Assembly: GCA_050013835.1 (NCBI GenBank)
Contig: JBEKEM010000003.1
Coordinates: 9,710 to 73,709 of the forward strand
Direction of reading: 5' to 3'
DNA: 64,000 nucleotides
From: Acidimicrobiales bacterium
GTDB lineage: Bacteria > Actinomycetota > Acidimicrobiia > Acidimicrobiales > Bog-793
How positions within the stretch are numbered: the first letter of the stretch is position 1; each line of letters opens with the position of its first letter. A program made the position numbers and the translations under genes. This document shows, piece after piece, positions 8,877 to 25,480 of this stretch. Under the pieces are notes generated by a model. That model was not told where the DNA came from. It worked only from the letters and a program-made list of their open reading frames with translations, and did not search any database.

Positions 8877-9203
8877 TCCCGACAACGCACCGATCGTCAC
8901 GACCGCGCCGGTCACGGCCCGCCCCGGGTGTCCCGTCGGCCAGCCCGGGGCGGTGGGCGATGACCTCGGCACGCCTTCCCGGACTGGGGCTCGCCGCCAG
9001 CGGGTCGGAAATGGACGGGTTTGACCTGCGGTTACGGATCACGGCGCAAGACCGCGCGTGCGGCGTGGAGTCGCGAATCTGGCAACCGTTATCTCTTCAT
9101 GACCGCGCGCAGATCATCGAAGGCGCGGCCGAGTCACACTGACCCACTACCAACGCTGGAACGACGAGACCGGCCCGCTAGCGTTCGAGCCGAGAGAGAT
9201 CCG

Positions 9204-11594
9204 TTGGCCACGATCACCACCGTCGGGACCCGAGGCAGGGTCGGGGAGGCCGCCCCGCGCGTCGACGGGGTGCCGAAGGTCACAGGCGCGTTCACCTTCG
9301 CGAGCGACCTGCACCGCGAGGGGATGCTCTTCGGGGCGACCCTGCGTTCCCACCTCGCCTACGCCCGCGTCCGGCACGTCGACACCTCGCGCGCTCTGGC
9401 GACACCCGGGGTCGCGGCGGTCATGCTCGGCACCGACGTCCCGGGAACGAACCGCTTCGGTCTGAACTTCTTCGACCAGCCGGTCCTCGCCGAGGACGTC
9501 GTGCGCTACTCGGGAGAGCCGATCGCCGTCCTCGCCGCCTCGACGCCGGAGATCGCCAGGCGGGCGGTGGCGAAGATCGACGTCGACCTCGAGGCATTGC
9601 CCGGCGTCTACGACATGGAGGAGGCGCTCGCCCCCGACGCGCCGCGCCTGCACGAGTTCGGAAACGTCCTTCGCCACGTGCACATCCTCCACGGCGAACC
9701 CGACACGGCCGAGGCGGACGTCTGGATGGACGGCTACTACGAGACGGCGATGCAGGACCAGGCCGCACTCGGCCCGGAGGCGGGACTGGCGGTGCCGGCC
9801 GAGGACGGCGGCATCGACCTTTACGTCACGACGCAGTGGCTGCACGTCGACCGCGAGCAGATCTCGCCGTGCCTGGGACTGCCCGAGGACAAGGTCCGGC
9901 TGCACCTCGCCGGCGTCGGGGGCGCGTTCGGGTCCCGCGAGGACATCCACATGCAGATCCACGCCTGCATGCTGGCGCTGCGGACGGGCAGGCCGGTGAA
10001 GTTCAGCTACGGACGCGAGGAGTCCTTCCACGGGCACGTCCACCGCCACCCCTCGAGGATCTGGATGCGGCACGGTGCCAGCCGCGACGGCCGCCTCGTC
10101 GCCCTCGACGTCCGGCTGATGTTCGACGGCGGTGCCTACGCCTCGTCCTCCCCCGCCGTGCTCGGCAACGCGGCGAGCATGTCCGCCGGTCCCTACGAGG
10201 TGCCGAACGTGCGCGTCGAGGGCACGGTCGTCTACACGAACAACCCGCCCTGCGGGGCGATGCGCGGGTTCGGCGCCCCCCAGGTGTGCTTCGCCTACGA
10301 GGCCCAGATGGACAAGCTCGCGCGCCTGCTGGCGATCGATCCCGTCGAGCTGCGCCTGCGCAACGCCGTCTCCACCGGCTCGGTCCTGCCGACCGGACAG
10401 GTCGTCACGGGGAGCGCCCCCGTGCGGGAGCTGATCCGGCGCTGCGTCGCCATCCCCCTGCCGGCGCCGGAGCCCGACCGGGGCCGCGACCTCACCCGCT
10501 ATCCCGGCGGGGTGGGCAACGTGACGCACGGCGAGGGGATCCGCCGCGGCGTCGGCCTCGCCGTCGGCTACAAGAACGTGGCGTTCAGCGAGGGATTCGA
10601 CGACTCCGCCACAGCCCGCGTGACGCTCTCCCGCACGCCCGACGGGCCCGAGGCGGAGATCTACACCGCCGCGGTCGAGATGGGCCAGGGGCTGTACACG
10701 TTCCTCACCCAGGTCGTGCGGACCGAGCTCGAGGTCGACCGGGTCGTCCTGCACGCCATCGACACCCTGATCGGCGGGGCCGGGTCGACGTCTGCGTCGC
10801 GCCAGTCGATGATGGCCGGCGGCGCGGTGCAGATGGCGTGCGGCGCCGTGCGCGCAACCCTTTTCGAACGGGCACGGGCCCGCTCCGGCTCGGTCCCGGA
10901 AGGCGCCAGACTCGCCCTCGCCGATGGCTGGGTCGTGGCCGGCGGGTCACCGCTCGTCGAGCTCGAGGACCTCCTCGACGAACCCGTCTCGGGCGAGGCC
11001 GTCTACCACCACCGCCCGACCGGGAACTTCGACGAGAACGGTCAGGGGGACGTCCACGTCTGTTTCGCCTTCGCGGCCGAGCGGGCGGTCGTCGAGGTCG
11101 ACGAGGACCTCGGGCTCGTGCGCGTCCTGCAGGTGGCGGCGGCGATCGACGTCGGCCGCGTGCTCAACCCGCTCGGGTTGACCGGCCAGATCGAGGGCGG
11201 AACCGCCCAGGGGCTCGGCCTCGGGCTGATGGAGCAGGTCCAGCTCCACGAGGGCGTGATCCGCAACCCGTCCTTCACCGACTACCTCATCCCGACGATC
11301 CTCGACATGCCGCCGGTCGTCTCCGTGGCGGTCGAGGAGCCCGAGCCCGGCTCCCCCTACGGCCTGAAGGGCGTCGGCGAGTCACCGACGATCGTCGCCA
11401 CGGCGGCCGTGGTCGCCGCCTTGCGCGACGCGACGGGGCGGGAGCTGAACCGCGCCCCGGTCACGCCGGACGAGCTCGTCGGCCTGCGGGGTCCCGCGAC
11501 GACGTCGGGCCCGCCACCGATTCCCGAGGTGCCCGGCCAGAAGTCGGTGCCGTTCTACTTCGAGATGAGCTCCGGCCAGCAGAAGATCATGTAG
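9204..11594 (+). CDS. xanthine dehydrogenase family molybdopterin-binding (large) subunit
   Basis: 'PRVDGVPKVTGAFTFASDL' at the N-terminus, 'GGAFGSRED', 'GAMRGFGAPQ', 'GESPT'. Third-position GC only becomes coding-like from the in-frame TTG at 9204, which follows GAGAGAGA. The ATG at 9099 is an alternative start. Confidence 0.88.
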   Translation: MATITTVGTRGRVGEAAPRVDGVPKVTGAFTFASDLHREGMLFGATLRSHLAYARVRHVDTSRALATPGVAAVMLGTDVPGTNRFGLNFFDQPVLAEDVVRYSGEPIAVLAASTPEIARRAVAKIDVDLEALPGVYDMEEALAPDAPRLHEFGNVLRHVHILHGEPDTAEADVWMDGYYETAMQDQAALGPEAGLAVPAEDGGIDLYVTTQWLHVDREQISPCLGLPEDKVRLHLAGVGGAFGSREDIHMQIHACMLALRTGRPVKFSYGREESFHGHVHRHPSRIWMRHGASRDGRLVALDVRLMFDGGAYASSSPAVLGNAASMSAGPYEVPNVRVEGTVVYTNNPPCGAMRGFGAPQVCFAYEAQMDKLARLLAIDPVELRLRNAVSTGSVLPTGQVVTGSAPVRELIRRCVAIPLPAPEPDRGRDLTRYPGGVGNVTHGEGIRRGVGLAVGYKNVAFSEGFDDSATARVTLSRTPDGPEAEIYTAAVEMGQGLYTFLTQVVRTELEVDRVVLHAIDTLIGGAGSTSASRQSMMAGGAVQMACGAVRATLFERARARSGSVPEGARLALADGWVVAGGSPLVELEDLLDEPVSGEAVYHHRPTGNFDENGQGDVHVCFAFAAERAVVEVDEDLGLVRVLQVAAAIDVGRVLNPLGLTGQIEGGTAQGLGLGLMEQVQLHEGVIRNPSFTDYLIPTILDMPPVVSVAVEEPEPGSPYGLKGVGESPTIVATAAVVAALRDATGRELNRAPVTPDELVGLRGPATTSGPPPIPEVPGQKSVPFYFEMSSGQQKIM

Positions 11595-11672: not shown

Positions 11673-12545
11673 GTGACGTTCCTGCGGCCGACGACCTGGG
11701 CCGACGCGCTCGCCGACCGGGCGGAGCATCCCGAGGCCGTCGTCGTCGCGGGAGGGACCGACGTGATGGTCGAGGTCAACTTCGGCCGCCTCCACCCGCC
11801 CGCCTTCCTCGACCTCTCGCGGGTCGAGGAGCTGCGCGCCCTCGGCCGCAAGGACGGGCGGGTCCAGGTGGGCTCCGGGGTCACCTACCGGTCGATCATG
11901 CGCGATCTCGCCGGCGCGCTCCCCGGACTCGCCGCCGCCGCCCGCACCGTCGGATCTCCGCCGATCCGGAACAGGGGCACGATCGGCGGCAACCTGGGCT
12001 CGGCGTCGCCCGCCGGCGACTGCCACCCGCCGCTCCTCGCCTGCGGCGCCGAGGTCGAGATCGCCTCGGTCACTTCGAGCAGGACCGTACCCATCGCCGA
12101 CTTCTTCCTAGGCCCCAAGCGCAGCGTCCTCGGCTCCGACGAGCTGATCGCCGCGGTGTGGGTGCCGGCGGCCACGGGGCCCCAGACCTTCTCCAAGGTG
12201 GGGTCGCGCAACGCCATGGTCATCGCCATCTGTTCCTTCGCCCTGGCCCTCCACCCCGACGAGGGCCGGGTCGGCACGGGGATCGGCTCCGCCGGCCCCG
12301 TGCCGCTGCGGGCGTTAGCGGCCGAGGAGTTCCTCGCCGGACACCTCGCCGAGACGGGAGGGTGGGAGTCGCGGCGCGCGCTCGACGAGACCGCCGTCGA
12401 CGAGTTCGCCCGACTCGTCGCCGGGGCCGCCCGGCCGATCGACGACGTGCGGGGCTCGGCCGACTACCGCCGGCACGCCCTCGGTGTGCTGGCGCGCCGT
12501 TCGCTCTCGTGGTGCTGGGACGAGTTCCGGGGGACGAGACGATGA
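11673..12545 (+). CDS. xanthine dehydrogenase family FAD-binding (medium) subunit
   Basis: 'VVVAGGTDVMVEVNFG', 'GTIGGNLGSASPAGD'. CoxM/XdhB-like, 290 aa. Confidence 0.85.
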   Translation: MTFLRPTTWADALADRAEHPEAVVVAGGTDVMVEVNFGRLHPPAFLDLSRVEELRALGRKDGRVQVGSGVTYRSIMRDLAGALPGLAAAARTVGSPPIRNRGTIGGNLGSASPAGDCHPPLLACGAEVEIASVTSSRTVPIADFFLGPKRSVLGSDELIAAVWVPAATGPQTFSKVGSRNAMVIAICSFALALHPDEGRVGTGIGSAGPVPLRALAAEEFLAGHLAETGGWESRRALDETAVDEFARLVAGAARPIDDVRGSADYRRHALGVLARRSLSWCWDEFRGTRR

Positions 12546-13000
12546 GGGTCTCGTTGACCGTCAACGGGGTCGCGCGCGTGGTCGACGGCGTCGGCGAGCA
12601 GGAGAGTCTGCTCCACCTGCTGCGGGAGCACCTCGATCTGTTCGGCACGAAGAACGCCTGCGAGCAGGGAGAATGCGGCTCGTGTTCGGTGTATCTCGAC
12701 GATGTGCTGGTCTGTTCCTGCCTGGTCGCCGCCGGTCAGGCGGAAGGGGGCACCGTCACGACGGTCGAGGGATTGTTCGCCGATGGCATCCTCGATCCCA
12801 TCCAGCAGGCCTTCGTCGAGGCCGGTGCCGTCCAGTGCGGATTCTGCACCCCGGGCTTCGTCCTGGCTACCCATGACCTCCTGCGACACATGCCGGATCC
12901 CGACGACGCCCAGATCCGCGAGGCGCTATCGGGAAACCTCTGCCGGTGCACCGGCTATCAGAAGATCATCGACGCTGTCCACCGCGCGGCAGGCCGCTAG
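12542..13000 (+). CDS. (2Fe-2S)-binding (small) subunit
   Basis: 'CEQGECGSCSV...CSC', 'QCGFCTPG', 'CRCTGY'. Its start overlaps the FAD subunit stop (ATGA). It is the last 152 aa of shadow ORF 9836..13000. Confidence 0.9.
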   Translation: MRVSLTVNGVARVVDGVGEQESLLHLLREHLDLFGTKNACEQGECGSCSVYLDDVLVCSCLVAAGQAEGGTVTTVEGLFADGILDPIQQAFVEAGAVQCGFCTPGFVLATHDLLRHMPDPDDAQIREALSGNLCRCTGYQKIIDAVHRAAGR

Positions 13001-13073: not shown

Positions 13074-13547
13074 CTATCCGAACGGGCAGGGCAACGACCC
13101 GTTGACGATGATTGTCTTGCCCTCGGCGAAGTTCCCGGCGATACCGGTGAGGGTCACGTGCGAGACGATCAGCATGTAATCCTCAAGGCTCACGCCAGCG
13201 CTGCCGCTGGTGCTAAAGACCCAAACGACTCCCTTAACCGGGATCGACAGACTGAGTATGCCCGACGTGTCGACGCCGATGGTCACCGTCGCGCCGTTGA
13301 GCGTCGCTGTCCCCGTGGCCCCGGCCTGTGGGGGGCAACCCAGCGCGCTGTGGAGGATGGTGCCGGTCACCGCGCCGGTGACGGTCATGCGCGAGGGGAG
13401 AGTCGTCGTTGTGACGGGGAGAGTTGTCGTTGCGACAGGAAGAGTCGTCGTCGTGGCGAGCGGCGTAGCTGCTCCCCCTCCGCAGGATGCCAGACCGGCC
13501 ACCAACGCGAGCACTGCCACCGCCCCGAGCACCTTCCATCCGCCCAT
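13074..13547 (-). CDS. small secreted lipoprotein, unknown function
   Basis: Signal peptide plus lipobox 'LVAGLASC', then a Thr-rich repeat linker. ATG at 13547 is preceded by GGGGAGG. Confidence 0.6.
   Translation of the reverse strand: MGGWKVLGAVAVLALVAGLASCGGGAATPLATTTTLPVATTTLPVTTTTLPSRMTVTGAVTGTILHSALGCPPQAGATGTATLNGATVTIGVDTSGILSLSIPVKGVVWVFSTSGSAGVSLEDYMLIVSHVTLTGIAGNFAEGKTIIVNGSLPCPFG
13395..13457 (-). repeat. three imperfect 21-bp tandem repeats encoding TTT(T)LP(V/S)
   Basis: On the + strand: ggggagagtcgtcgttgtgac / ggggagagttgtcgttgcgac / aggaagagtcgtcgtcgtggc. They lie inside the lipoprotein gene. Confidence 0.8.
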
Positions 13548-13913
13548 AGCGACCTCCCCGACCTCCCGAAACCGTCCGGGAACACGATAATCCTGCCGAG
13601 CCGCGGCGAACGGTTCGACCTCTCCTGGAAGGACGCGCTCGGTCCCCGGCTCGAGCACCGGGGGATCCCTCATCTGCCTCGCCGAATTCGGCACCCGGGT
13701 GGTCCGCGCGGGAATGGCTTCTTTATTCAACGTCCAGCTACTTCGCCGCATTCGTCACGCGGGTGTTCCCACCGGTCGTACGCCTTAGAGGGGACCCCTG
13801 CCAGAGTCCGCTGCCAGACGCCGCCCACGGCCCACCTGGCTGGGTTCGCTCAGCACCGGGATTCGGCCGAATACCCGAATCGCGCGACCTCGTTCGACGC
13901 CGATCCAGTCGAT

Positions 13914-14864
13914 CTAGTCGACGGTGAAATGTGTCCCCGTCAGGCCGGCGACCGCCCTCGCGAGGTTCGGCGGATCCGTGACGATGGCGTGCTTCCCGCC
14001 GTTCTCGAGGTACTCGATGACCGCCTCGATCTTCGGCGCCATGCTTCCCGCTGCGAAGTGCACGCCCTCGGCGACATACCGCCGCGCCTCGGCGAGGCTG
14101 AGATGGTCCACCGAGCGCTGGGCAGGCGTGCCGAAGTTGAGCGCCACCTTCTCGACCGACGTGGAGATGAGGAACAGCTCGGCCCCGAGGTTGCGCGCCA
14201 GCAGCGAACAACCCAGGTCCTTGTCGATCACGGCCTCGACCCCCTGGAGGTCGCCATCGGCGTCGGCGACGACGGGGATCCCCCCGCCGCCGACCCCTAT
14301 CACGATGACCCCGGCCGCGATAAGCGACCTGATCGCGTCGAGCTCCACGATGCGCCGCGGGCGCGGTGAGGCGACGACGCGCCGCCAACCCCGATTGGCG
14401 TCCTCGACGACGTCCCAGCCGTCCTGCGCGCGGCGCCGACGCGCCTCGCTTTCGTCCATAAACGATCCGATCGGCTTGGTCGGGTTCGTGAAGGCGGGAT
14501 CGTCCACCGCCACCTCCACCTGGGTCACGATCGCCGCCACGGGCCTGTCCATGCCCCGGCGCCGCAGCACGTTCTGCAGGTTCTGCGCGAGGGCGTAGCC
14601 GATCGCGCCCTGGGAGTCGGCGCCGCAGGCGTCAAGCGGCACCTCGTGGAGCTCGTGGGCGGCGAGCTCCGAACGGCGCAGAATGAAGCCCACCTGTGGG
14701 CCGTTGCCGTGGCCGATTGCGACGTCCCAGCCGTCGGCGATCATGGCCGCCACGTGCTGGGAGGTTTCGTGGGCCGCGATGTACTGGTCGCGCACCGCCT
14801 GGTGCATCCGGTCCTTGATCAGCGAGTTGCCGCCGATCGCGACGACGGCGAGTCGATCGCCCAC
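13914..14864 (-). CDS. arcC: carbamate kinase
   Basis: 'VVAIGGNSL', 'VAIGHGNGPQVG', 'GGGGIPVV', 'AAGSMAPKIEA'. Confidence 0.9.
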   Translation of the reverse strand: MGDRLAVVAIGGNSLIKDRMHQAVRDQYIAAHETSQHVAAMIADGWDVAIGHGNGPQVGFILRRSELAAHELHEVPLDACGADSQGAIGYALAQNLQNVLRRRGMDRPVAAIVTQVEVAVDDPAFTNPTKPIGSFMDESEARRRRAQDGWDVVEDANRGWRRVVASPRPRRIVELDAIRSLIAAGVIVIGVGGGGIPVVADADGDLQGVEAVIDKDLGCSLLARNLGAELFLISTSVEKVALNFGTPAQRSVDHLSLAEARRYVAEGVHFAAGSMAPKIEAVIEYLENGGKHAIVTDPPNLARAVAGLTGTHFTVD

Positions 14865-14875
14865 GGCCTGGACCT

Positions 14876-15853
14876 CTAGCCCATCGTCAGCGCCATGACG
14901 GCCTTCTGGCCATGCAGGCGGTTCTCGGCCTGGTCGTAGACGACGGAGTGCGGCCCGTCGATCACCTCATCAGTGACCTCGACGTTGCGGTCCGCCGGCA
15001 GCGGGTGCATGTAGATCGCCTCCTCGCTCGCCAGGGCGACCCGGCGCGCGTCGGTGATCCAGTCGGCGTACTTGGCGATGAGCTTGGCCCCCTCGGCCTC
15101 GTCCGTCGTCGTGCGCAGCGCCCCCCAGCTCTTGGCGTAGATGACGTCGGTGCCCCGGATCCCCTCGTCGAAGTCGTGAGAGACCTCGAACGAGGCGTGC
15201 GCCCGGCGGGCCTCCTCCTCGGCCTGCCCGACGATCTCGGGCAGGAGGGAGAACTCGGGCGGATGGACGAGGCGGACGTTCATGCCGAAGCGCGGGAGCA
15301 GCAGCGCCAGGCTCTGGGGCACGCTGATCGGCTTCTGGTAGCTCGCGGCGCAGGCCCAGCTGATCGTCGCCGTGCGGCCACGCGGGTCCCCGAAGCGTTC
15401 GATGATCGTCATCAGGTCCGCCAGGGCCTGGTGCGGATGGAAGACGTCGCACTGCATGTTGAGCACGGGGACGCGGCTCGCTTCGGCGACGTCGCGCAGA
15501 TACCCGTTGCCCACCAGCCAGTCGACGTGGCGGATGGCGATGCCATCGTTGTAGCGCCCGAGGATCTCGCCGATCTCCTTGGCGGTGTCACCGTGGGCGA
15601 TCTGGGTGGTCCTGCTCTCGATGAACTGGGCGTGGCCCCCCAGCTGCGCCATGCCGGCCTCGAACGAGGCCCGCGTCCGCGTGCTCGAGAAAAAGAACAA
15701 CATCGCGAGCACCTTGTCGCGGAGCAGCGGGTGCGCCCGACCGAGGGCGCGGTCTCGTTTGAGGTCGAAGGCCACCTCGAGCACGGTGTCGATCTCGTCC
15801 TTGGTCCACTCGGAGAAGTCAATGACGTCCCGGCCCCGGAGGTTCGTCTGCAT
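14876..15853 (-). CDS. YgeW-like (unknown-substrate) carbamoyltransferase
   Basis: 'SSTRTRASFE', 'TQIAHGDT', 'NMQCDVFHPHQALADL', 'SYQKPISVPQS', 'YMHPLPAD'. As I recall the E. coli YgeW sequence, these segments resemble it more than OTC or ATC. Confidence 0.8.
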   Translation of the reverse strand: MQTNLRGRDVIDFSEWTKDEIDTVLEVAFDLKRDRALGRAHPLLRDKVLAMLFFFSSTRTRASFEAGMAQLGGHAQFIESRTTQIAHGDTAKEIGEILGRYNDGIAIRHVDWLVGNGYLRDVAEASRVPVLNMQCDVFHPHQALADLMTIIERFGDPRGRTATISWACAASYQKPISVPQSLALLLPRFGMNVRLVHPPEFSLLPEIVGQAEEEARRAHASFEVSHDFDEGIRGTDVIYAKSWGALRTTTDEAEGAKLIAKYADWITDARRVALASEEAIYMHPLPADRNVEVTDEVIDGPHSVVYDQAENRLHGQKAVMALTMG

Positions 15854-15881
15854 GGTCCTCCTTCCTTTCCGGTTCCCCGGC

Positions 15882-16832
15882 CTAGCTCACGGCCCCGAGG
15901 ACGAGCGAGAGCAGCGCCATCCGCATCACGACGCCGTTGAAGGCCTCGAACCAGTAGCGGGCGTGGCGCGTGCCGTCGACGTCGGTCGGCAGCTCGTCCA
16001 TCCTCGGCAGCGAGTGCAGGATGATGGCGTCGGTCTTGGCCTTCTTGGCCATGAGCTCCTTCGTCACGCGGTAGGCCGGCGGGGTGAGCCCGTGCTCCTC
16101 GACCTCTTCCCGGGACTTGGTGTAGTCGGCCTGCACGACCGGCTCCATGTAGACGACATCGGCGTCGGCCAGGCACTCCTCGACGCTGGCGACCTCGCGG
16201 TAACGCGCGCCGCGCGCGGCGAGCTCGGCCGAGAACTCCGGCAAGAGCGACATCTCCGGCGGGTGGACGAGCGACGCCGTCATGTCGAACTGCGTCATGG
16301 CGTAGAGGATCGAGTGCATCGTGCGCATCCGCATGTCCCCCACGCAGAGCACGTTCAGCCCGTCGAGCGTGCCCTTGTCCTTCCAGATCGTGTAGAGGTC
16401 GGTGAGCACTTGGGTGGGGTGCTCCCCCCAGCCGTCGCCGCAGTTGATCACCGGCACCGAGGACCACCGCGCGGCCTCGGCCGGCGCGCCCTGCTCGAAG
16501 TGGCGCATCGCGATGACGTCGCCGTAGTACTCGAGCATGTGGACGGTGTCCTTGATGCTCTCCTGGTAGAAGTCCCCGGCCCGGGTCATCTTGGCGTCGG
16601 AGAACCCGAGCACGTGCCCGCCGAGCCGGTGCATCGCCGCCTCGGTGGCGAGCCGGGTCCTGGTGCTCGGCTGGTAGAAGGCGGTGAGCAGCGTCTTGTG
16701 GGCGAGCAGGTCCCCGTTCTCGCGCCGCTCCGCGTACGGCCTTAGCTCGTCGGCGACCCGGAAGACCTCGAAGTACTCGTCGCGCTCGAAGTCCTTGAGC
16801 GAGAGGATGTCCCGTCCGGCAAAGCTCCTCAT
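15882..16832 (-). CDS. PyrB-like carbamoyltransferase, non-canonical second-substrate site
   Basis: 'QPSTRTRLATE', 'GEHPTQVLTDL', 'ILHSLPRMDELPTDVD...YWFEAFNG'. The 'MTRVQKER' aspartate-binding segment of E. coli PyrB is replaced by 'MEPVVQAD'. Confidence 0.8.
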   Translation of the reverse strand: MRSFAGRDILSLKDFERDEYFEVFRVADELRPYAERRENGDLLAHKTLLTAFYQPSTRTRLATEAAMHRLGGHVLGFSDAKMTRAGDFYQESIKDTVHMLEYYGDVIAMRHFEQGAPAEAARWSSVPVINCGDGWGEHPTQVLTDLYTIWKDKGTLDGLNVLCVGDMRMRTMHSILYAMTQFDMTASLVHPPEMSLLPEFSAELAARGARYREVASVEECLADADVVYMEPVVQADYTKSREEVEEHGLTPPAYRVTKELMAKKAKTDAIILHSLPRMDELPTDVDGTRHARYWFEAFNGVVMRMALLSLVLGAVS

Positions 16833-16863
16833 CTTGTACCGCCCTTCCGTAGTTGAAGGCCCG

Positions 16864-17853
16864 TCACGAGCCGAAAGTGTCGATCATCAACCGCACGTCG
16901 CTGCCGAGCGGGTACAGGATCGGGCAGGTTGCACCCGCGGCGATGTACTCATCGACCTTCGCGCGGCACTCCTCGGGGGCCCCGGAGGCGGTGATCATCT
17001 GGACCGCCTCGTCGGGCACGAGCTTCATCGCCCGGTGGATCTCCTCGGGCCCGGCCGGCCAGGTGAGGACCTTGCCGATCTCCTCGATGAGGGCCGGGTC
17101 GACCCCGCTCGCCTTCATGATGTGGGGCTGCTGGCCGAGGTACTGGGTGAGGAGCTCGCGTGACCGGTCGAGGGCGAGCTCGCGGTTCTGGTCGAGCGAG
17201 CACACGACGAGCTGGGGCCGGTCGATCTCGTCGAGCGATCGGTGGGCGCGGGCCGCACCGACGGCGAGGTGCTCCATCGCCGACCGGTTGTAGGCGGGGC
17301 TCACCATGTAGTTGAGCACGACCCCGTCGGCGATCTCGCCGGCGAGCTCCATCATCTGCATCCCCGTCGCGCCGACGTAGATCGGCACCTGCCTCGGCGA
17401 GCGGTCGCCGTGGACGACGTCGATCTCCACGTCGTCGAGGTGCACGAAGCTGCCGTGGTAGGTGACGCGCTCCATGGCGAGGAGCCGGCGGGTCGCCTCG
17501 ACGACCTCGCGCATCGCGGTGAGCGGCCGGGTGCGGTTGACGCCCACCTTGGTGGCGAGCGGCTCCCACCAGGCGCCGAGCCCGAGGATCACCCGGCCCG
17601 GGGCGAGCTCGTCGAGCGTCGAGAACGTCGCCGCCAGCAGGCCGACGTTGCGCGTCCAGATCGGGATAACCCCCGAGGCGACCTTGATCCTGCTCGTCAC
17701 GGCGGCGTAGGCGGCCATCGGCACGGTCGCCTCGCGCACGAGGCGGCTCTCGGCCTGCCAGACCGCCTCGAAACCGCGTTCCTCGGCGTAGCGGGAGTAC
17801 TCCATGCCCTCCCGGATCGGGTGCATGTCCTGCAGGTACAAGGCGGCCCTCAT
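16864..17853 (-). CDS. LLM-class (luciferase-like, probably F420/flavin-dependent) oxidoreductase
   Basis: '[12 protein letters not shown]...[31 protein letters not shown]'. ATG at 17853 is preceded by GGAGGGAGGAG and overlaps the ssnA stop (ATGA). Confidence 0.8.
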
Positions 17854-19211
17854 CGCTCCTCCCTCCGTGGATCGTAGGGGTGCGCCGGCGTCGCCTCGAG
17901 GCGGCCCCACAACCGCGCCGTGACCCCGACCTCGTCGGAGGCGACCGCGGCCTCGTCGACACGGGTCGAACGACCGTTTTCGACCACGAGCTCCCCGGCC
18001 ACGTAGACGTCACGCACCCTGCCGGGGGCGAGCCCGAAGACCCAGTGCCCGGCGAGGTTGTCCGAGCTGATCGGCGTCGGCGGGTCGTAGGCGAGGACGC
18101 AGAGGTCCGCCGGCGCGCCCGGCAGCAGCGTGCCGAGCAGCGGCTCGTCGAAGCATCGACCGGCGAGGCGCGCGCCCTCGGCCAGGCGCGCGAGCGGCCA
18201 CTCCGGCGGCGTCGTACGGTCGGCTTCCTTGGCGCGGAAGAACCCGGCCTGGGACTCGGCGAGCATGTCGCCCCCGATGCCGTCGGTGCCAAGCGCGACC
18301 CTCCCGCCCCGCAGGTTGAACGGCGAGTGCCCGACGCTGTTGTTCATGTTCGACCGCGGGTTGCACACGACCGTCGCGCCGATCGATCCGATGAGCCGGG
18401 CCTCGTCGTCGTCGACTTTGACGCAGTGGGCGAGCAGGGCGTCCTGGTTCAGCACCCCGCGGTCGCGCAGGCGCATCGCCACCCGGTTGCCGCCCCGGCG
18501 GAGGCTGTCCCGCTCGTCGACGTCGTCCTCGGCCACGTGGATGTGCACGCCGACGCCGGCCTCGGCCGCCACCCCGGCACAGCGCTCGAGGGTCCCGTCG
18601 GACAGCGTGAACGAGGCGTGCGCGCCCACCATCCCCCGCGCGAGCTCCCGGGGGCGACGGGCAAACCTCCGGTTCTCCTCGAGGCCGGCCGTCGCGCGCT
18701 CCGGGCCGTCCCGGTCGGTGACCTCGTAGCAGAGCACCGAGCGCACCCCCAGGACGGCGAGCGCCTCGGCGATCACGTCGAGCGACCCGTCGATGAAGTT
18801 CGGCGAGGCGTGATGGTCGACGATCGTCGTGGTGCCGGCGAGGAGGGCGTCGAGACCGCCCCGCACCGCCGAGGCGCGTACCGACTCCTCGTCGAGGGCG
18901 CGGTCGAGCCGCCACCAGATCCGCTGGAGGATCTCGGTGAAATCGGCCGGTGGCGCCAGCGAGTACGGCATGCCTCTCGACAGCGCCGAGTAGAGGTGGT
19001 GGTGGGCGCAGACGTTCCCCGGCACGATCAAACTTCCGCCGCAGTCCCGGGTCGGGATGCCTTGGGGAACCGCCCCGAGGCCGCGCACGCGCCCGTCGGC
19101 GATGACGAGATCGGCGCGCACGACTTCGGGTGGTGCGAGGGACACGGCGACCCATGCGCCGCACAGGGCCACGCCCGAGGCGGTGCTGGCGCGGGTCTGC
19201 CCGGCGGTCAC
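17850..19211 (-). CDS. ssnA: SsnA-type putative aminohydrolase (amidohydrolase superfamily)
   Basis: '[18 protein letters not shown]', '[17 protein letters not shown]', '[11 protein letters not shown]', '[11 protein letters not shown]', 'LGTDGIG'. GTG at 19211 overlaps the upstream stop (GTGA). The rest of ORF 17850..20183 is shadow frame. Confidence 0.85.
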
Positions 19212-20560
19212 GAGCGCTCGACCCCGGTGAAGAGCACCCCCACCCGCTCGGCGCGCCGGACGGTGCCCGACTCGACGAGCTGTGCCAGTCCGGCGAGCCC
19301 GGCCGAGCCCGTGGCGCTGACCGGGAATCCCGCCTCCCGACCGAGTTCGTGGGCCCACACGAGCCGCTCCTCCCCGACGACGACCGGCTCCCCGTGCGTC
19401 GCGAGCATCCCGCGCACGACGGCGAGCCAGTCGTAGGTCTCGTCGTCGAGGATCCCCTCGGCGACGCTTCTGGGCTCGGCTTCCCAGGGCCACATGTAGG
19501 CCGACCGCCGCCCGGCGGCGGCACGGACCGCCCGGTCGGTGGCTCCCGCGTCCGTCTCGCCCGCCAGGTCCTTGTGCACCTGGCGGAACGCCCGCTCCAA
19601 CGGGTGGGCCCCGGCCGTCTGCACCGTGTGGACCCGCGGGATCCTCCCGAGTTTCCCCAGGGCACGTGCCTCGGTGAACGCCTGCACGCAGCTGCTGGCG
19701 AGCGCGCCGCCGCCCACCTGGACAACGACGTGGTCGAGCCCCCGCCCGTCCGATGCGAGCTGCGAGACGAGCTCGTAGCCGAGCGTCTCGCCCCCCTCGA
19801 TCGCCAGGCCGTTGAGGTTCCCCTGGCAGGTGAAGCCGACGGCGCCCTCGTCGAGCTCGGCGAGCAAGCGGAGATACGTCGGATCCCCCGGCTCGCCGGG
19901 GTTCCGCGCGCAGGCGACGATGTCGGCGTCGAGCTCGCCGAGGCGGTTGACGACGTGGGCGTCGGCGTCGACCGGCACGAAGACCCGCAGCCGCCGGCCG
20001 GCCGCGGCCGCGACGACCGCGGCGGCGAGCGCGGCGTTCCCGCAGCTGGCGACGGCGAGCGTCGGGTGCCGGTCGGACGGGACGAGGCCGAGCATCTCCG
20101 CCACCTCGAGGTGCAGCGCCACGCCCATCAGGTGGCGCGCCTTGTGCGACCCGGCCACGTTCCCGGTCTCGTCCTTCACCCACACGCCCCCCGGCTCGAC
20201 GAAGCCGAGGGCACGCGACACGACGTCGCTCCGCCCGAAGGGAGTCACCGTGAAACCGTGGCCGTCGACCCGGGTGACCGCTGCGTCGAGGCGTCGCACG
20301 AGAGCGACGAAGTCCCCGTCGCTCACCCCTCCCGCGCGGGCACGGTGGTAGCTATGGAGGAGCCCCCGGTAGCCGACGAACGGGCACGGGTCGTCCGCCT
20401 CCGCCTCCGGGAATCGCACCCGGTCGGTCGCCAGCACCCGGGTGAGGACGTGGTCGACGTCGCCCTCGGCGTGGTTCGGGCAACGGAAGGGGTATGGGTC
20501 CCGCTCCCCCGGCGAGGCGCCGCAGCCGGCGCAGGAAAGCGTGCTCGCGGGCGCGCTCAA
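19208..20560 (-). CDS. PLP-dependent enzyme, fold type II (threonine-synthase-like) with Cys-rich N-terminus
   Basis: Lys motif '[11 protein letters not shown]', '[15 protein letters not shown]', '[10 protein letters not shown]'. The N-terminus reads 'LSCAGCG...FRCPNH'. TTG at 20560 overlaps the upstream stop (TTGA). Confidence 0.7.
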
Positions 20561-22053
20561 GAGACGGCGACCCCGGTGCGACCGTTGAAGGCGCGGATGA
20601 GCTCGTCCCAGCGCGTCAGCTCGGTCCGCAGTTCCCGCCACCAGGACTGGGCCCGCCGGGCGTTGAACTCGTCGATTCCGACCCCCTGCTGCTCCACCCA
20701 CGTGAAGTAACCGAGGTTGAAGATGCGCTGCCGGTCGACGGCCGTCGTCTCCAGGAGGTGGTCGGTCCCGGCGCCGAGCATGAAGCGGCCGAACGCCTCG
20801 GCGGCGGAGCGCTCATCGAAGCCCGAGGCGAAATCCCGCGCGACGATCCGCTGCCGCTCGCTTCCGTACATCTCGGCGCCGTCGGTGGCGACCGTCATCA
20901 CGACGTCGTCGGGACCGAGTCCCAGGTACTTGGCGGTCTTCACGGCGGCGAGGACGTTGCAGATGCTCGAGAGGCCGAACTCGTCGAGAGTCGCGAGCAC
21001 CTCGGGCGGCACCTGGCGCCGCCGGGCGAGGTACGCCCTGCCTTCCGCCGAGCCGAAGACCACCGCGAGGTGGTCGGTCGCGCGGTCGGAGACCGCCGTC
21101 ACGATGTCGGTGTTGTACACGTTGTGGATGAACGGGATGTGCTTGTCGCCGATCCCCTGGATGTTGTGCTCGCCGAACCCGTTGTAGAGCATCGTCGGAC
21201 ACTCGAGCGCCTCGACGGCGACGATGCGCGCCCCCCGCGTCTCTTTCAGGTAGTCCCCCGCTCCCAGCGTCCCCGCCGAGCCCGAGGCGGAGACGAAGGC
21301 GGCGAGCCGCAGCGAGGGTTCGGTGGCCAGCATCTCGTCGAAGACGGCGCCGAGCGCGGACCCGGTGCACCGGTAGTGGACCAGGTGGTTCCCGAACTCG
21401 GCGAACTGGTTGAAGATGACGTTCGCCCGGTCACGCGACAGCTCGGCGCATCGGTCGTAGATCTCCTTCACGTTGCTCTCGGTGCCGGGTGTCGCGATCA
21501 CGTCCGCCGGATCGGCGACCCAGTCCTCGAGCCAGGCGAAACGCTCCCGGCTCATCCCCTCCGGCAGCACGGCGACGCCGCGACAGCTCATGAGCCGTGA
21601 GATCGCCACCCCGCCGCGGCAGTAGTTTCCCGTGGAGGGCCACACCGCCCGGTTCGCCGTCGGGTCGAACTGCCCGGTGACGACCCGTGGCACAAGGCAG
21701 CCATACGCGGCGAGCACCTTGTGGGCGCGGATCATCGGGAAGCGGTCGCCGAACGCCACGACGATGCGGGCGTCGACGCCGGTGAGCTCGCTCGGCAGCA
21801 CCACGTGACCCGGCACGGTCACCTGCGACGTGCGACCGGCGTCGTTGTACCAGTGGACGCGGAACAGGTTGAGGGGACTGGCCTCGTCCGGCGCCACCGC
21901 CCCGAGCGCCCGGCGGATGGGAGCGGGGATGAGGATCGGCTCGGCCAGCTCGGCGAAGGTCGGCAACAGAATCTGGCGTTCCCGGAAGCGCTCGACGGTG
22001 CGGCCGTACACCGCCTCGTCGACGATGTCATCTTCGCGTCCCAAGGTCCGCAC
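20557..22053 (-). CDS. PLP-dependent enzyme, fold type II (cysteine-synthase/TrpB-like), about 498 aa
   Basis: '[14 protein letters not shown]' (candidate PLP lysine), '[13 protein letters not shown]', '[12 protein letters not shown]'. GTG at 22053 lies 6 nt after GGAGGA. Confidence 0.7.
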
Positions 22054-22288
22054 CTGCACTCCTCCGTCTCTATTGGATCGCGACGGCCCCATCGTCGCTG
22101 CCAGCCGGACTTGAGGTCCCCGAGCCTCCTTCGACTGCTCCGCTCATCTGTCTTGTCCGACGACTTCGGCCGGGCGTCGCGCCCGACCGAGGACCCGCCC
22201 GGCGACGGCGACCCGTCCCGGGCACCACCCGCTCGCGCACCCTAGTGACCACGTGGCCCCGGCGGCGCGAATCTCGTTCCAGACAGAC

Positions 22289-22319
22289 GGTGGCCCCCGC
22301 GCCACGCGCGGGGGCCACC
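22289..22319 (-). terminator. strong GC hairpin immediately after the permease stop
   Basis: A perfect 13-bp stem, GGTGGCCCCCGCG / CGCGGGGGCCACC, with a 5-nt loop lies 9 nt downstream of the TAG at 22328-22330. There is no clean U-tract. Confidence 0.55.
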
Positions 22320-22327
22320 GCTTCTGC

Positions 22328-23821
22328 CTAGAAGGACTGCTTGGCGACCTCCCTCGGGACCGAACGGAACGACAGCACGAAGTAGACGACCGCGCTGACG
22401 ATCAGCCCGAAGGCCCAGCTGAAGTCGGCACCGTGGGTCCAGTTCGACAACGGCGAGGAGTACGAGGGCGTGTAGAAGGCCGCGTCGATCCACATCATCG
22501 CCGCGAACATTCCAGCTGCCAGCGATACCAACGCCTTCCAGTTGAAGCCGCCGTCACGCCAGTACAAACCACCGTGTTTGGCGGCCAACGACTTGAACTC
22601 GTAGCGGCCGCGCCGGAGCCAGTAGTCGACGATGTAGACGCCGAACCACGCACCGAGCCAGACGACGATGTAGTCGAGGAACCCGGCAAGGTCCGTGTAG
22701 AAGTTCCCCTTGAAGATCACGAGGGCCGTCACGCCACCGGAGATGATGGTGTCGATGACGACGCAGACCCACCGCTTGGCCGGAAGGCCGAGCGCCTGGA
22801 GGGTGACCCCCGAGGAGTACATGTCGAGCGTGTTGATCGCGAACAGCTGCGGCAGCGCCAGGATCAAGAACGGCCAGAAGAACCAGCTGGCGAACGACGT
22901 CGGAAGAGCGGCCGCGGCACCGGGGCCGTAGATGTTGCTCTGGAGTGACGTGCTGACGAGGTAGGCGCAGGCACCGAGGAGCTCGAGCAGGATCGACGGG
23001 ATGGCCCCGCCAAGCGTCGCGGCCCAGAACGTCTTCGCCGTGGGGGTGTCAGCCGGCAGGTAGCGGGAGTAGTCCGCCGCGTTCTCGGTCCAGCCGAGAC
23101 CCCCTGCCGAGACGACGAGCACGAGCCCGGTGGTCCACAGCCACCACGAGTCCGTGCCGTGCGCGTGCAGGTCGGACAGGTGGACGTGGGGAAGGACGAG
23201 GCACGCCATGATGGCGAAGACCACGACGAACACGTAGGACAGGTAGTGCAGGACCTTCGTGATCGTCGCGTGCCCGAGGAACGGCACGACGAACTGGATG
23301 AGGACGGCGATGATGATCGCGATCGTCTTGCCGGTGTCGTTGAGGTGGATCCCCTCGTGGCTGAACATCGCCACGACGACCAAGACCGCGATCACAAGGC
23401 CTTCGACCTCGAAGCCGACCTGGGTGATCCAGTTGAACAACGACGGCGCGCGGTTGCCGTTCCGGCCGAAGGCCGCGCGGCTCACCATGAACGTCGTCGT
23501 CCCCGACCTCGGCCCGGCAAGGCTCGCCGCGCCGAGGAAGACGTAGACGATGTTCCCGAGGAGGATCGCCAAGACGGCCTGCCAGAACGTCAGCCCGAAG
23601 GCGACGATCAGGGCGCCGTAGACGAGGAACTCGACGTTCCAGATCCCGCCGGCCCACATCCAGAACAGGCCCCCAGGGCGCAGCCGCCGGTCGGCATCCG
23701 CGACGTGCTCGATACCCCGCTGCTCGAGTTTGAAGGCGCTATACCCCTCAGCGGCCTCGTCGCCGGACATCGACGACCCGCCTCCCGGCGGGCCGGAGCC
23801 CATGTCCACACCGTTGGCCAT
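22328..23821 (-). CDS. NCS1 family (cytosine/purine/uracil/allantoin/hydantoin) permease
   Basis: A 497-aa polytopic membrane protein with 'FKLEQRGIEHV...RLRPGGLFWMWAGG' at the N-terminus. ATG at 23821 is preceded by GGAGGGAGG. Confidence 0.85.
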   Translation of the reverse strand: MANGVDMGSGPPGGGSSMSGDEAAEGYSAFKLEQRGIEHVADADRRLRPGGLFWMWAGGIWNVEFLVYGALIVAFGLTFWQAVLAILLGNIVYVFLGAASLAGPRSGTTTFMVSRAAFGRNGNRAPSLFNWITQVGFEVEGLVIAVLVVVAMFSHEGIHLNDTGKTIAIIIAVLIQFVVPFLGHATITKVLHYLSYVFVVVFAIMACLVLPHVHLSDLHAHGTDSWWLWTTGLVLVVSAGGLGWTENAADYSRYLPADTPTAKTFWAATLGGAIPSILLELLGACAYLVSTSLQSNIYGPGAAAALPTSFASWFFWPFLILALPQLFAINTLDMYSSGVTLQALGLPAKRWVCVVIDTIISGGVTALVIFKGNFYTDLAGFLDYIVVWLGAWFGVYIVDYWLRRGRYEFKSLAAKHGGLYWRDGGFNWKALVSLAAGMFAAMMWIDAAFYTPSYSSPLSNWTHGADFSWAFGLIVSAVVYFVLSFRSVPREVAKQSF

Positions 23822-24157
23822 CGTCGGACCTCCCTCCGTGCGCCTCGGAAAGGTCGGTCGGCCCTCGTCGTGCGCACTATCTAGTCGTACGACAGAACGT
23901 GTTGCAGGCAACCCCGTGAAACCTCCGGCACTGTATCCCTTGGACGCCGTTCCGTCGCTGTTGAATTTGTCGTCTTCTTGTTCCCCTGCGCGGCGTCCCG
24001 CCGTCACGGGCCGCCCTGCGACCCTCCCCAGGCGGCAGGGCGACCGGCCGGGGCGTGGGCCGGCGATGCCCGCCGCACCGGCGGGCGGGGCTGGGTGGGC
24101 GGTCTCGTCTTGACCGGAGACGAGCTGGCCGACCGGTCCCAACGGCCTGGTCGGGTG

Positions 24158-25480
24158 ATGTCGGGGACGGCGATACTACGGGGCGTGGAACAGCGGACGG
24201 TCCTGCGCGGCGTCGCCTCGCCCGGCGACATCGCCGTCGAGCAAGGACACGTCGCCACGATCGGCACGGTCGACGCCCGGCCCGGCGACCGCGTGCTGCG
24301 CTGTGACGGTGCCCTCGTCACGGCCGGGCTCGTCAACTGCCACCACCACCTCTACCAGTGGCTGACCCGGGGCCGGGCGACTGCCTGCGACCTGTTCACA
24401 TGGCTCACGACCCTCTACCCCGTCTGGGGGCGGATCTCGGCCGAGGACACGGCGGTGGCGGCTCTCGTCGGGCTGGGCGAGCTCGCCCTGGGCGGGGCGA
24501 CGACGGTGTCGGACCACCACTACGTCGTGCCCCGTGGCGACGACACCGTCTTCGACGCCATCGCCGCCGCGGCGGGCACCGTCGGAGTCCGGCTGCAGCT
24601 CTGCCGGGGCTCGATGGACCTCGGAGAGAGCGCCGGGGGGCTCCCGCCCGACTCCGTCGTGGAGTCGATCGACGCCATCCTCGCCTCGACCGAGTCCGTC
24701 GCCGCCCGCCTGCACGACGGCGACCGCGTGATGGTCTCCGTCGCGCCGTGCAGCCCGTTCTCGGTGACGACCGACCTTTTGCGCGAGTCCGCCGCCCTCG
24801 CCCGCCGACTGGGACTGCGCCTGCACACCCACCTCGCCGAGACCGAGGACGAGGCGCGCCACTGCCAGGCGCGCTTCGGACTGCGGCCGCTCGAGTTGAT
24901 GGAGGAGCTCGGGTGGCTCGGCGACGACGTCTGGTTCGCCCACGCCGTCCACCTCGAGCCGGCTGAGGTCGCCGCCCTCGGGGACGCCCGCGCCGGCGTG
25001 GCCCACTGCCCGAGCTCGAACGCGCGGCTCGCCGCCGGCCTCTGCCCGGTACGGGGCCTCCTCGACGCCGGCGCGGCCGTCGGCCTCGGCGTCGACGGCC
25101 CGGCCTCCAACGAGCTGGGCGTGCTGCTGCCGGAACTGCGCCAGGCGCTCAACCTGGCGCGGCTGCGAGAGGGACGGGCCGACGCCCTGTCGCCGGCCGA
25201 GGCGCTGGCGCTCGCCACCTCGGGGGGCGCGGCCTGCCTCGGGCGTGCCGATCTCGGCCGGCTCGAGGTGGGGGCGGTGGCCGACCTCGCCGTCTGGCCG
25301 CTCGCCGACCTGGCCGACATCCCCGACCCGGTCGACGGGCTCGTGCTCGGCCCCGACCGGCGCGTGCGCCACCTTCTCGTCGGGGGCCGCGAGGTGGTGG
25401 TCGACGGGAACCTCGTGGGCGTCGACCTCACGGCCGCGCACGGCGAACTGGCGCGGCGCTCCCGCGAGCTGTGGCGGTGA
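24158..25480 (+). CDS. 8-oxoguanine/guanine-deaminase-like amidohydrolase (COG0402 type)
   Basis: 'GLVNCHHHLYQ', 'HTHLAETEDE', 'FAHAVHL', 'AHCPSSNARL', 'GVDGPASNE'. Confidence 0.8.
   Translation: MSGTAILRGVEQRTVLRGVASPGDIAVEQGHVATIGTVDARPGDRVLRCDGALVTAGLVNCHHHLYQWLTRGRATACDLFTWLTTLYPVWGRISAEDTAVAALVGLGELALGGATTVSDHHYVVPRGDDTVFDAIAAAAGTVGVRLQLCRGSMDLGESAGGLPPDSVVESIDAILASTESVAARLHDGDRVMVSVAPCSPFSVTTDLLRESAALARRLGLRLHTHLAETEDEARHCQARFGLRPLELMEELGWLGDDVWFAHAVHLEPAEVAALGDARAGVAHCPSSNARLAAGLCPVRGLLDAGAAVGLGVDGPASNELGVLLPELRQALNLARLREGRADALSPAEALALATSGGAACLGRADLGRLEVGAVADLAVWPLADLADIPDPVDGLVLGPDRRVRHLLVGGREVVVDGNLVGVDLTAAHGELARRSRELWR

Follow-up and report, generated by a model that had tools for sequence, protein, structure and literature searches.

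A reductive uric acid pathway, which runs via 2,8-dioxopurine ("yanthine") and is encoded by gene clusters of Escherichia coli and Clostridium, was reconstituted in two studies from 2025 (Li et al., PMC12507026; Liu et al., bioRxiv 10.1101/2025.04.24.650524). Here we compare with it a seven-gene operon at positions 13914-22053, minus strand, of a 64,000-nt stretch of contig JBEKEM010000003.1 from an Acidimicrobiales bacterium (assembly GCA_050013835.1); the whole stretch is referred to as the window. In the described pathway urate is converted to 2,8-dioxopurine by XdhD-YgfM or XdhAC and the product is dearomatised by YgfK. Ring opening by SsnA gives ureidomethyl-hydantoin, which is turned into 2,3-diureidopropionate by HyuA. 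One ureido group is then phosphorolysed by YgeW, YqeA turns the carbamoyl phosphate to ATP, YgeY hydrolyses the other ureido group, and YgeX converts diaminopropionate into pyruvate and ammonia (PMC12507026; bioRxiv 10.1101/2025.04.24.650524). The two studies differ on which mono-ureido isomer is formed (PMC12507026; bioRxiv 10.1101/2025.04.24.650524). In the commentary by Percudani the order of ureido cleavage and the stereochemistry are listed as open questions, the intermediates are proposed to be D-configured, and the pathway is described as restricted to obligate or facultative anaerobes. Li et al. used SsnA (IPR017700/TIGR03314) as the pathway marker and listed Actinomycetota among the phyla bearing it (PMC12507026). 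In SsnA neighbourhoods of Chloroflexota they observed a putative F420-dependent reductase (PF00296) in the place of YgfK and proposed it as an alternative yanthine reductase (their Figure 3c and discussion); this association came from a sequence-similarity network only, and the swap was assigned to Chloroflexota only (PMC12507026).

On balance we favour the reading that the operon, together with the purine-catabolic island of ~40 kb in which it is embedded, encodes a complete route from purines to pyruvate by a variant of this pathway. The first operon gene encodes PLP1 (20557-22053, 498 aa), a pyridoxal phosphate (PLP) enzyme of the CysK/cystathionine beta-synthase (CBS) fold, and is followed by the genes for PLP2 (19208-20560, 450 aa), a PLP enzyme of the ThrC/dehydratase/racemase fold, an SsnA-family amidohydrolase (17850-19211, 453 aa), a luciferase-like reductase, LLM (16864-17853, 329 aa, Bac_luciferase), a carbamoyltransferase derived from aspartate carbamoyltransferase (ATCase), CT1 (15882-16832, 316 aa), a short YgeW-like carbamoyltransferase, CT2 (14876-15853, 325 aa; both of the OTCace fold), and a carbamate kinase, CK, the counterpart of YqeA (13914-14864, 316 aa). 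As in E. coli and C. sporogenes, homologues of SsnA, HyuA, YgeW, YqeA, YgfM and XdhD are present in one island, along with a permease, a guanine-type deaminase, XdhC and a MobA/MocA-like gene, and the logic is apparently the same: reduction, dearomatisation, opening of two rings, loss of two ureido groups, deamination and formation of ATP. The window differs in having LLM for YgfK, CT1 for YgeY and two fold-type II PLP enzymes for YgeX, in being without YqeC or a clear homologue of YqeB, and in its host, which is a high-GC member of the Acidimicrobiales and not a gut anaerobe; the names borne by near-identical proteins likewise point to Acidimicrobiales or their vicinity. This is a new variant of the known pathway and not a separate route. 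An earlier note made from the sequence alone, hereafter the original prediction, had proposed a separate, uncharacterised route, whereas the same chemistry with swapped enzymes fits the window; its link of the gene set to urate degradation was right but understated, the pathway having been fully reconstituted in 2025 (PMC12507026; bioRxiv 10.1101/2025.04.24.650524). The exchange of YgfK for LLM is already in print, while the substitutions by CT1 and by the PLP pair are, to our knowledge, undescribed; no published account of the pair or of the second transferase was found in the literature on the pathway. In the network of Li et al. any PF00291 neighbour was coloured "YgeX" and any PF00185 neighbour "YgeW" (PMC12507026), so that neither the PLP pair nor the second, ATCase-derived transferase stood out as distinct there.

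All seven open reading frames (ORFs) were recovered, co-directional on the minus strand, and the gene order, overlaps and spacers were exactly as originally described. On the coding strand the 4-nt overlaps are TTGA (20557-20560), GTGA (19208-19211) and ATGA (17850-17853), and the remaining genes are separated by 31, 28 and 11 nt. Shine-Dalgarno-like purine runs were seen upstream of PLP1, LLM, CT1 and CT2. Because the G+C content of the window is ~72%, third-position GC was used to tell real genes from spurious ORFs; it lies between 0.86 and 0.98 across the operon, which supports all seven genes as coding, and the gene lengths agree with those of homologues. For comparison we used ~165 related loci, with inspected flanks of 8-10 kb, including a PLP1-anchored set of the best 80 loci and an SsnA-anchored metagenome sample (L083-L162). 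The same gene order was found at 63-98% protein identity in the independent contigs L083, L085, L003, L005, L006 and L163, the first of which has exactly the order of the window at 82-98% identity. Since the order recurs in independent contigs, the arrangement is not due to chance.

The operon is preceded by a gap of 274 nt, which separates PLP1 from an NCS1 permease gene and holds a GC-rich hairpin. This strong inverted repeat (~22288-22320, GGTGGCCCCCGCGC...GCGCGGGGGCCACC) lies just past the permease stop codon and may be a terminator parting the permease from the operon. Neither the 274-nt leader nor the whole window gave an Rfam match at the gathering score, and the sub-threshold matches reflect only the GC hairpin. 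A scan for sigma-70 promoters returned none and a terminator scan stayed at chance level, both scans being uninformative. The ORF at 13074-13751 (minus strand), which lies between CK and the small subunit of the xanthine dehydrogenase in a gap of 900 nt, was tried as an eighth operon gene and rejected, as it has no Pfam match and is not conserved in related loci. Its product is lipoprotein-like, with a signal peptide and a LASCGG lipobox.

The family assignments of the original prediction agreed with the Pfam and NCBIfam matches, and so did its view that these are not housekeeping copies. That seven ordinary genes (pyrB, argF, arcC, thrC, cysK) were brought together by accident would be in line with the score of CT1, just over the TIGR00670 cutoff for aspartate carbamoyltransferase (248 vs 237 bits), and with the labels "cysteine synthase" and "threonine synthase" which relatives of PLP1 and PLP2 carry in the sources. 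We give this explanation next to no credence. PLP1 reaches 72 bits with the cysK model TIGR01139 (cutoff 351) and PLP2 40 bits with the thrC model TIGR00260 (cutoff 167), CT2 stays under every cutoff, that for argF included, CT1 is without Lys84, and in dozens of contigs the operon is found conserved alongside SsnA, LLM and Mo hydroxylases. Moreover, the window has a canonical CysK/CysE pair at 45879-47521, and with this CysK (45879-46817) present, PLP1 is not the housekeeping cysteine synthase.

Kinship with the E. coli ygeW/ssnA/xdhD cluster, as claimed in the original prediction, was borne out by reciprocal searches. When 21 E. coli proteins from the xdhA-uacT region were searched against the window by tblastn, partners were obtained for YgeW, YqeA, SsnA, HyuA, YgfM, XdhD, XdhABC and GuaD; each of YqeA, YgeW, SsnA, HyuA, YgfM and XdhD has one best full-length partner. 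The reverse search returned the same pairs, which gives six reciprocal best hits: CK-YqeA (47% identity), CT2-YgeW (32%), SsnA-SsnA (37%), hydantoinase-HyuA (42%), YgfM-YgfM and XdhD-XdhD (37%). No match in the 64-kb window (E<=1e-3) was obtained with E. coli YgfK, YgeX, YgeY, YqeC or MocA, and for the first three this is in accordance with what had been noted before. With identities to the E. coli proteins of only 30-47%, with SsnA, XdhD, SeXDH and CT2 below their equivalog cutoffs and with a reductase from another superfamily than YgfK, one could argue that a different N-heterocycle is degraded (another oxopurine, a pterin or a pyrimidine) and that the likeness to E. coli reflects enzyme families only. 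We find this improbable, as the six reciprocal best hits lie in one island, which also has a pucD-type xanthine dehydrogenase above cutoff, an adenine deaminase, an oxoguanine-type deaminase and a nucleobase permease. In addition, related loci mix window-type genes freely with authentic YgfK, YgeW (at most 68% identity to E. coli), YgeY and DpaL.

For the upper part of the pathway, SsnA is by far the best family for the amidohydrolase, which is 37-38% identical to E. coli SsnA over its full length in a reciprocal match (NF005540 401 bits, cutoff 444; TIGR03314 387 bits, cutoff 455; next family 125 bits). The plus strand of the island offers two candidates for the Fe-S/molybdenum cofactor (Moco) hydroxylase. 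One is an XdhD-like fused 2Fe-2S/Moco protein (27750-30692; 37% full-length identity to E. coli XdhD; TIGR03313 691 bits, cutoff 1102) with a YgfM-like FAD subunit (26935-27672; PF00941; TIGR03312 73 bits, cutoff 241; 28-29% identity to E. coli YgfM, reciprocal), and the other is a second fused 2Fe-2S/Moco hydroxylase, SeXDH (30793-33402; TIGR03311 801 bits, cutoff 830). We consider the XdhD-like protein a candidate urate 6-dehydroxylase and SeXDH an alternative or additional candidate for the conversion of urate to 2,8-dioxopurine. Across phyla the SeXDH type is the most consistent neighbour of SsnA, and the XdhD-YgfM pair was seen only in the closest relatives of the window. The D-hydantoinase of the pathway is present at 25491-26897 (plus strand), as a counterpart of HyuA with 473 bits to TIGR02033 (cutoff 393) and 42-43% identity to the E. 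coli protein.

LLM matches PF00296 with 227 bits. Its top 17 NCBIfam matches are all F420 LLM families, led by Mer with 163 bits and each under its cutoff, and its best 10 PDB matches are all F420 enzymes (Mer 135 bits, then FGD and Adf), with FMN enzymes much lower. It is thus probably an F420H2-dependent reductase. The LLM gene overlaps that of SsnA by four nucleotides (ATGA) and in 48 of the 51 LLM-containing loci it lies immediately downstream of SsnA. Li et al. described YgfK and SsnA as coupled, an unfavourable reduction being pulled by hydrolysis (PMC12507026), and the adjacency of LLM and SsnA mirrors that coupling. With no YgfK match in the window and an F420-type LLM in the position next to SsnA, the arrangement suggests that LLM takes the place of YgfK as 2,8-dioxopurine reductase. 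LLM would hence belong to the upper pathway and not, as originally predicted, among substitutes in the lower one. The SsnA-LLM pairing and the role proposed for it are the same as in the Chloroflexota neighbourhoods of Li et al., and the swap pointed out there is now extended to Actinomycetota.

The reductase found in the 80 PLP1 loci was LLM in 21, a short YgfK of 686 aa in 15 and full YgfK in five. The short form (cluster c9) was recorded in L064 and also in L009, L037, L041, L062, L073, L074 and L077. It consists of a dihydropyrimidine-dehydrogenase-like FMN domain with Fe-S motifs and has no NAD(P)H/FAD half, so that a third mode of electron donation to the dearomatising step is implied.

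In the lower part, CK meets the carbamate kinase model NF009007 with 382 bits (cutoff 266). CT2 and E. coli YgeW are reciprocal best hits (172 bits, against 140 for ArgI) and have the motifs QCDxxHP, SYxKPxSVPQ, KSW and HxLPAD in common. CT2 is 70 residues shorter than YgeW and its NCBIfam scores are 252 bits for the ornithine carbamoyltransferase model (OTC, cutoff 306), 239 for the acetylornithine carbamoyltransferase model (AOTC, cutoff 288) and 169 for the YgeW model NF005538 (cutoff 453). The proposed reaction of CT2 is phosphorolysis of the first ureido group of 2,3-diureidopropionate. CT1 is 38% identical to E. coli PyrB and scores 220 bits with NF002032 (cutoff 263), while it passes TIGR00670 as given above. 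It keeps the carbamoyl-phosphate residues S52-R56, R105, H134 and Q137, as well as R167. Of the aspartate-binding residues of PyrB (Lys84, Arg167, Arg229, Gln231) the set is incomplete: all 26 orthologues compared have the changes K83->D and K84->Y, and eight inserted residues disrupt the 229-231 segment.

The distribution of CT1 is informative with regard to YgeY. Among 51 SsnA loci, CT1 occurs without YgeY in 24, YgeY without CT1 in 10, neither in 17 and both in none (Fisher p = 8e-4). Two loci, L051 and L078, are syntenic save for an exchange of CT1 and YgeY in one slot; in addition, CT2 is paired with YgeY in L022, and YgeW with CT1 and CK in L062. YgeY itself has no match in the window and CT1 holds its slot in syntenic loci. 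This suggests that CT1 replaces YgeY and would cleave the second, probably the 2-, ureido group by phosphorolysis, from which a second carbamoyl phosphate and consequently two ATP per urate would follow. Enzymes of the YgeW and AOTC type work on N-alpha-acylated substrates, at the side-chain ureido group, and ATCase works on N-alpha-carbamoyl amino acids. Because the two ancestries suit a side-chain and an N-alpha-carbamoyl group, respectively, we infer that cleavage of the 3-ureido group first and of the 2-ureido group second is favoured. The principle is the same as in the arginine deiminase pathway, where phosphorolysis of a ureido group by an enzyme of the OTC fold yields carbamoyl phosphate and carbamate kinase forms ATP. 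The window differs from it in the proposed substrates, ureido derivatives of diaminopropionate, and in the two transferases, one YgeW-like and one ATCase-like, that would act in series.

A third ATCase-like carbamoyltransferase of divergent sequence is encoded at 5814-6986 (minus strand, 390 aa), divergently oriented to the XdhC gene. It has an N-terminal extension of ~65 residues and STRTG for STRTR, and falls below every NCBIfam cutoff. The gene is missing from all ~165 related loci, and no tie to the pathway was found.

The last substitution concerns the two PLP enzymes, for both of which PF00291 is the sole Pfam match. PLP1 retains the Schiff-base lysine (RAHK), the STGN loop and the NQF and IQGIG motifs. 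Its AlphaFold2 (AF2) model has a predicted local distance difference test (pLDDT) score of 84 and is closest in fold to CysK, CBS and beta-cyanoalanine synthase, with a template modelling (TM) score of ~0.75 and 20-25% identity. With 498 aa, against ~300 aa for CysK/CysM, and helical extensions at both the N- and the C-terminus, it does not qualify as a cysteine synthase. PLP2 scores 85 bits with NF006050 (cutoff 303); its Cys-rich N-terminus, which had been pointed out originally, is a CxxC...C...H knuckle invariant in 37 homologues, and its AF2 model (pLDDT 90) is nearest to threonine synthase, threonine deaminase, serine and aspartate racemase, and DpaL. The Schiff-base lysine is kept in PLP2 as well. 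Within fold type II, PLP1 falls in the replacement branch and PLP2 in the elimination/racemase branch, and PDB searches with either returned only remote matches of the CysK and ThrC class and no characterised close relative. The two enzymes had been called unrelated to YgeX, whereas all three are fold-type II enzymes of PF00291. PLP2 shares with DpaL/YgeX (NF006058/TIGR01747) the superfamily and the elimination-branch fold; it differs in reaching 21 bits with NF006058 (cutoff 276), a model that PLP1 does not match at all, and in that two proteins stand for one.

PLP1 is carried by at least 599 species genomes in a scan with one genome per species, and the family is conserved at 61-89% identity across phyla. 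The carriers belong to Actinomycetota, Chloroflexota, Acidobacteriota, Alpha-, Beta- and Deltaproteobacteria, Myxococcota, Gemmatimonadota and Eisenbacteria. Culturable organisms in which relatives are reported are Nocardioides sp., Phycicoccus sp. and Rhodoplanes azumiensis KCTC 15603. The variant is not specifically actinobacterial, as first thought, since the PLP pair occurs together with SsnA in Chloroflexota, Acidobacteriota, Proteobacteria, Myxococcota and other phyla. In the PLP1-anchored set PLP2 directly follows PLP1 in 71 of 80 loci, SsnA is present in 51 (32 of 42 where the flanks are complete), a Mo hydroxylase in 47 and a YgeX/DpaL gene in just one; the SsnA-anchored sample agrees with this picture. 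The four-gene block SeXDH-SsnA-PLP1-PLP2 is common outside Actinomycetota, and the Chloroflexia loci L009, L033 and L036 carry PLP1-PLP2-CT1-CT2-CK, the first two with YgfK-type matches and L036 with no reductase match within 10 kb. Label-free clustering of all ORFs in the 80 loci revealed no further conserved partner: beside the known families it returned the short YgfK and a long form of YgeY, the rest being antisense artefacts.

There were two kinds of loci which bear on the role of the pair. Firstly, canonical genes were found with PLP1-PLP2 and without YgeX. Among the acidobacterial and proteobacterial loci of this kind the fullest example is L073, with a near-complete set of hydantoinase, Mo hydroxylase, SsnA, short YgfK, YgeW, YgeY and CK; partial sets were seen in L019, L038, L041 and L047, and in L015 the lower module alone (YgeY, YgeW, CK) lies beside the pair. 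Secondly, DpaL genes were found in the position of the pair or of one of its members. In L164 a DpaL-family gene occupies the slot of PLP2 and overlaps PLP1; it is 64% identical to the DpaL of L103 (NF006058 386 bits, cutoff 276), where the order is YgeY-DpaL-PLP1-CT2-CK-SeXDH-SsnA and PLP2 is lacking. Neither PLP gene is present in L168 (YgeY-CT2-DpaL-SeXDH-SsnA-LLM) or in the P0250 contig (SsnA-LLM-CT1-CT2-SeXDH-CBS-DpaL-CK), both of which have DpaL. Because in syntenic clusters DpaL genes stand in for PLP2 or for the whole pair, and with no YgeX match in the window, the comparison suggests that the PLP1-PLP2 pair occupies the niche of the diaminopropionate ammonia-lyase. Our guess is that PLP2 is the beta-eliminating lyase, an analogue of DpaL, and that PLP1 may either take the other stereoisomer or act a step earlier, by beta-replacement or racemisation.

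The same loci can be read in another way, namely that the pathway is indeed one for urate and PLP2 alone is the diaminopropionate lyase, while PLP1 acts on another intermediate. It could then perform beta-elimination or replacement on albizziin (2-amino-3-ureidopropionate), releasing urea, or convert diaminopropionate to serine or cysteine. In L164 and L103 PLP1 does stand beside a genuine DpaL, and L043 has all three genes; PLP1 has the full CysK set of beta-replacement motifs on a CysK/CBS fold, and the disagreement of the 2025 papers on the mono-ureido isomer means that an intermediate with a free alpha-amine, albizziin, may exist. However, DpaL occurs without PLP1 in the syntenic LLM-type clusters of L168 and the P0250 contig, by which PLP1 is dispensable when DpaL is there; the loci showed no gene for urease or for the handling of urea; and in nearly every case PLP1 and PLP2 are direct neighbours, very little space being left between them, which suggests a joint task. 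We judge a separate role of this kind unlikely, though it deserves to be kept in mind.

A much fainter chance is left for PLP1, with PLP2, being a sulfur donor of the cysteine-desulfhydrase type for Moco sulfuration, in replacement of the selenium system (YqeB, YqeC, SelD) that gut bacteria have. The window has no YqeC and no clear YqeB homologue, the SeXDH-SsnA-PLP1-PLP2 block is common outside Actinomycetota, and H2S-producing CysK-like enzymes are among the structural neighbours of PLP1. On the other hand, the pair occurs with lower-pathway genes only (L015) or alone, with no Mo enzyme within 10 kb, it is displaced by a catabolic diaminopropionate ammonia-lyase in syntenic clusters, and a factor of the XdhC type is already present in the window.

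Several observations weigh against the purine-to-pyruvate route as we favour it, or against parts of it. SsnA, CT2, LLM, XdhD, YgfM and SeXDH are all under the curated equivalog cutoffs. In part of the loci, e.g., L020, L032, L048, L063 and L069, no pathway gene was found within 10 kb of the PLP pair, so that the substrate of the pair need not come only from urate; the neighbours of the stand-alone pairs in L069, L048 and L020 are unrelated and give no hint on it. L043 holds PLP1, PLP2 and DpaL together, and from the retention of PLP1 beside DpaL there, in L164 and in L103 it follows that PLP1 may have an extra role. The favoured route offers no explanation for why two enzymes should serve a one-enzyme reaction. 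The region of CT1 near ATCase R229/Q231 is ambiguous, as alignments disagree, which leaves the change in the 80s loop as the one robust difference. Finally, CysK-type and ATCase-type enzymes normally use L-substrates, and the D configuration proposed for the intermediates fits poorly with such an ancestry.

Judged from the sequence comparisons, the purine-to-pyruvate route would run as follows. The adenine deaminase, the 8-oxoguanine/guanine-type deaminase and the pucCDE xanthine dehydrogenase would funnel purines (hypoxanthine, xanthine) to urate, from which a fused Fe-S/Moco hydroxylase (XdhD-YgfM and/or SeXDH) would strip the 6-oxo group to give 2,8-dioxopurine. This would be dearomatised by the F420H2-dependent LLM, translationally coupled to SsnA, which in turn would open the pyrimidine ring of the dihydro-2,8-dioxopurine to yield ureidomethyl-hydantoin, and the D-hydantoinase would convert the latter to 2,3-diureidopropionate. 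CT2 and CT1 would then phosphorolyse one ureido group each, and the carbamate kinase could form two ATP from ADP and the two carbamoyl phosphates, compared to one in E. coli, where the second group is hydrolysed by YgeY. In the stead of YgeX, PLP1-PLP2 would convert 2,3-diaminopropionate into pyruvate and two ammonia. Where the original prediction had the route end in carbamoyl phosphate and ATP, its end is most likely pyruvate and ammonia as in E. coli, ATP being formed at the ureido-cleavage steps.

With some reservation, and with less confidence than in the route itself, we propose that the PLP pair, carried by those at least 599 species genomes, is a two-enzyme alternative to DpaL, and that together with the ATCase-derived ureido-phosphorylase and the F420 reductase it marks an "environmental" form of the pathway. 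The window and its ~165 relatives would then have the same pathway logic in lineages from soil, peat and groundwater, with three enzymes exchanged, and the pathway would not be confined to the gut or to obligate anaerobes. If this is true, the first target is an F420-dependent purine-dearomatising reductase. CT1 would stand for a new substrate specificity in the ATCase family, prone to be mislabelled as PyrB by NCBI-type models, and for a two-ATP version of the pathway, whereas the ancestry of the transferases would provide an independent argument on the order of ureido cleavage. The highly conserved and very widespread orphan pair of PLP enzymes would obtain a function. Alternative parts that are oxygen-tolerant or independent of NAD(P)H could serve engineered uricolytic probiotics.

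The neighbours named in the original prediction (hydantoinase, YgfM-like and XdhD-like proteins, XdhC, MobA/MocA-like protein, guanine-type deaminase and NCS1 permease) are all present in the island. To these are added four that it did not name: the three-gene xanthine dehydrogenase of the pucD type, SeXDH, an adenine deaminase and the third carbamoyltransferase. The permease gene (22328-24142, minus strand; PF02133 158 bits; start codon uncertain) lies upstream of the operon on the same strand, a position matched in L083. Next in the window comes the 8-oxoguanine/guanine-type deaminase (23978-25480, plus strand; NF006055 529 bits, cutoff 532), which would channel purines to urate or xanthine and whose true start is probably downstream of 23978. 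An adenine deaminase is encoded at 33418-35286 (minus strand; PF13382 180 bits and Amidohydro_1), and a block of genes for Moco biosynthesis and molybdate transport occupies 35280-42661. On the other side of the operon, three plus-strand genes (9021-11594, 11673-12545 and ~12509-13000) encode a xanthine dehydrogenase of the pucD/pucC/pucE type; the pucD subunit scores 843 bits with TIGR03196 (cutoff 784), and FAD_binding_5 and Fer2_2 subunits were also found. They are preceded by an XdhC-family Moco insertion factor (7311-8876, plus strand), with XdhC_CoxI and XdhC_C domains and weak similarity to E. coli YqeB.

At the left edge of the island, the gene at 4653-5669 (minus strand) combines an ArdC N-terminal domain with a peptidase domain of type M78, domain types which are usual on mobile elements. 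On the right, a formate-tetrahydrofolate ligase gene (43601-45292, plus strand) is followed by the canonical CysK gene and then by that of the CysE-like hexapeptide transferase (46820-47521). The large cluster beyond them (47812-63215, plus strand) resembles the heterodisulfide-reductase-like (sHdr) system of sulfur oxidation, with lipoate-binding proteins. It comprises two each of LplA-like ligases, GcvH-like proteins and radical SAM genes, along with DsrE-family genes, HdrA/B/C-like Fe-S/CCG proteins, the alpha and beta subunits of an electron transfer flavoprotein (ETF) and an Fe-S/CCG protein of 800 aa.

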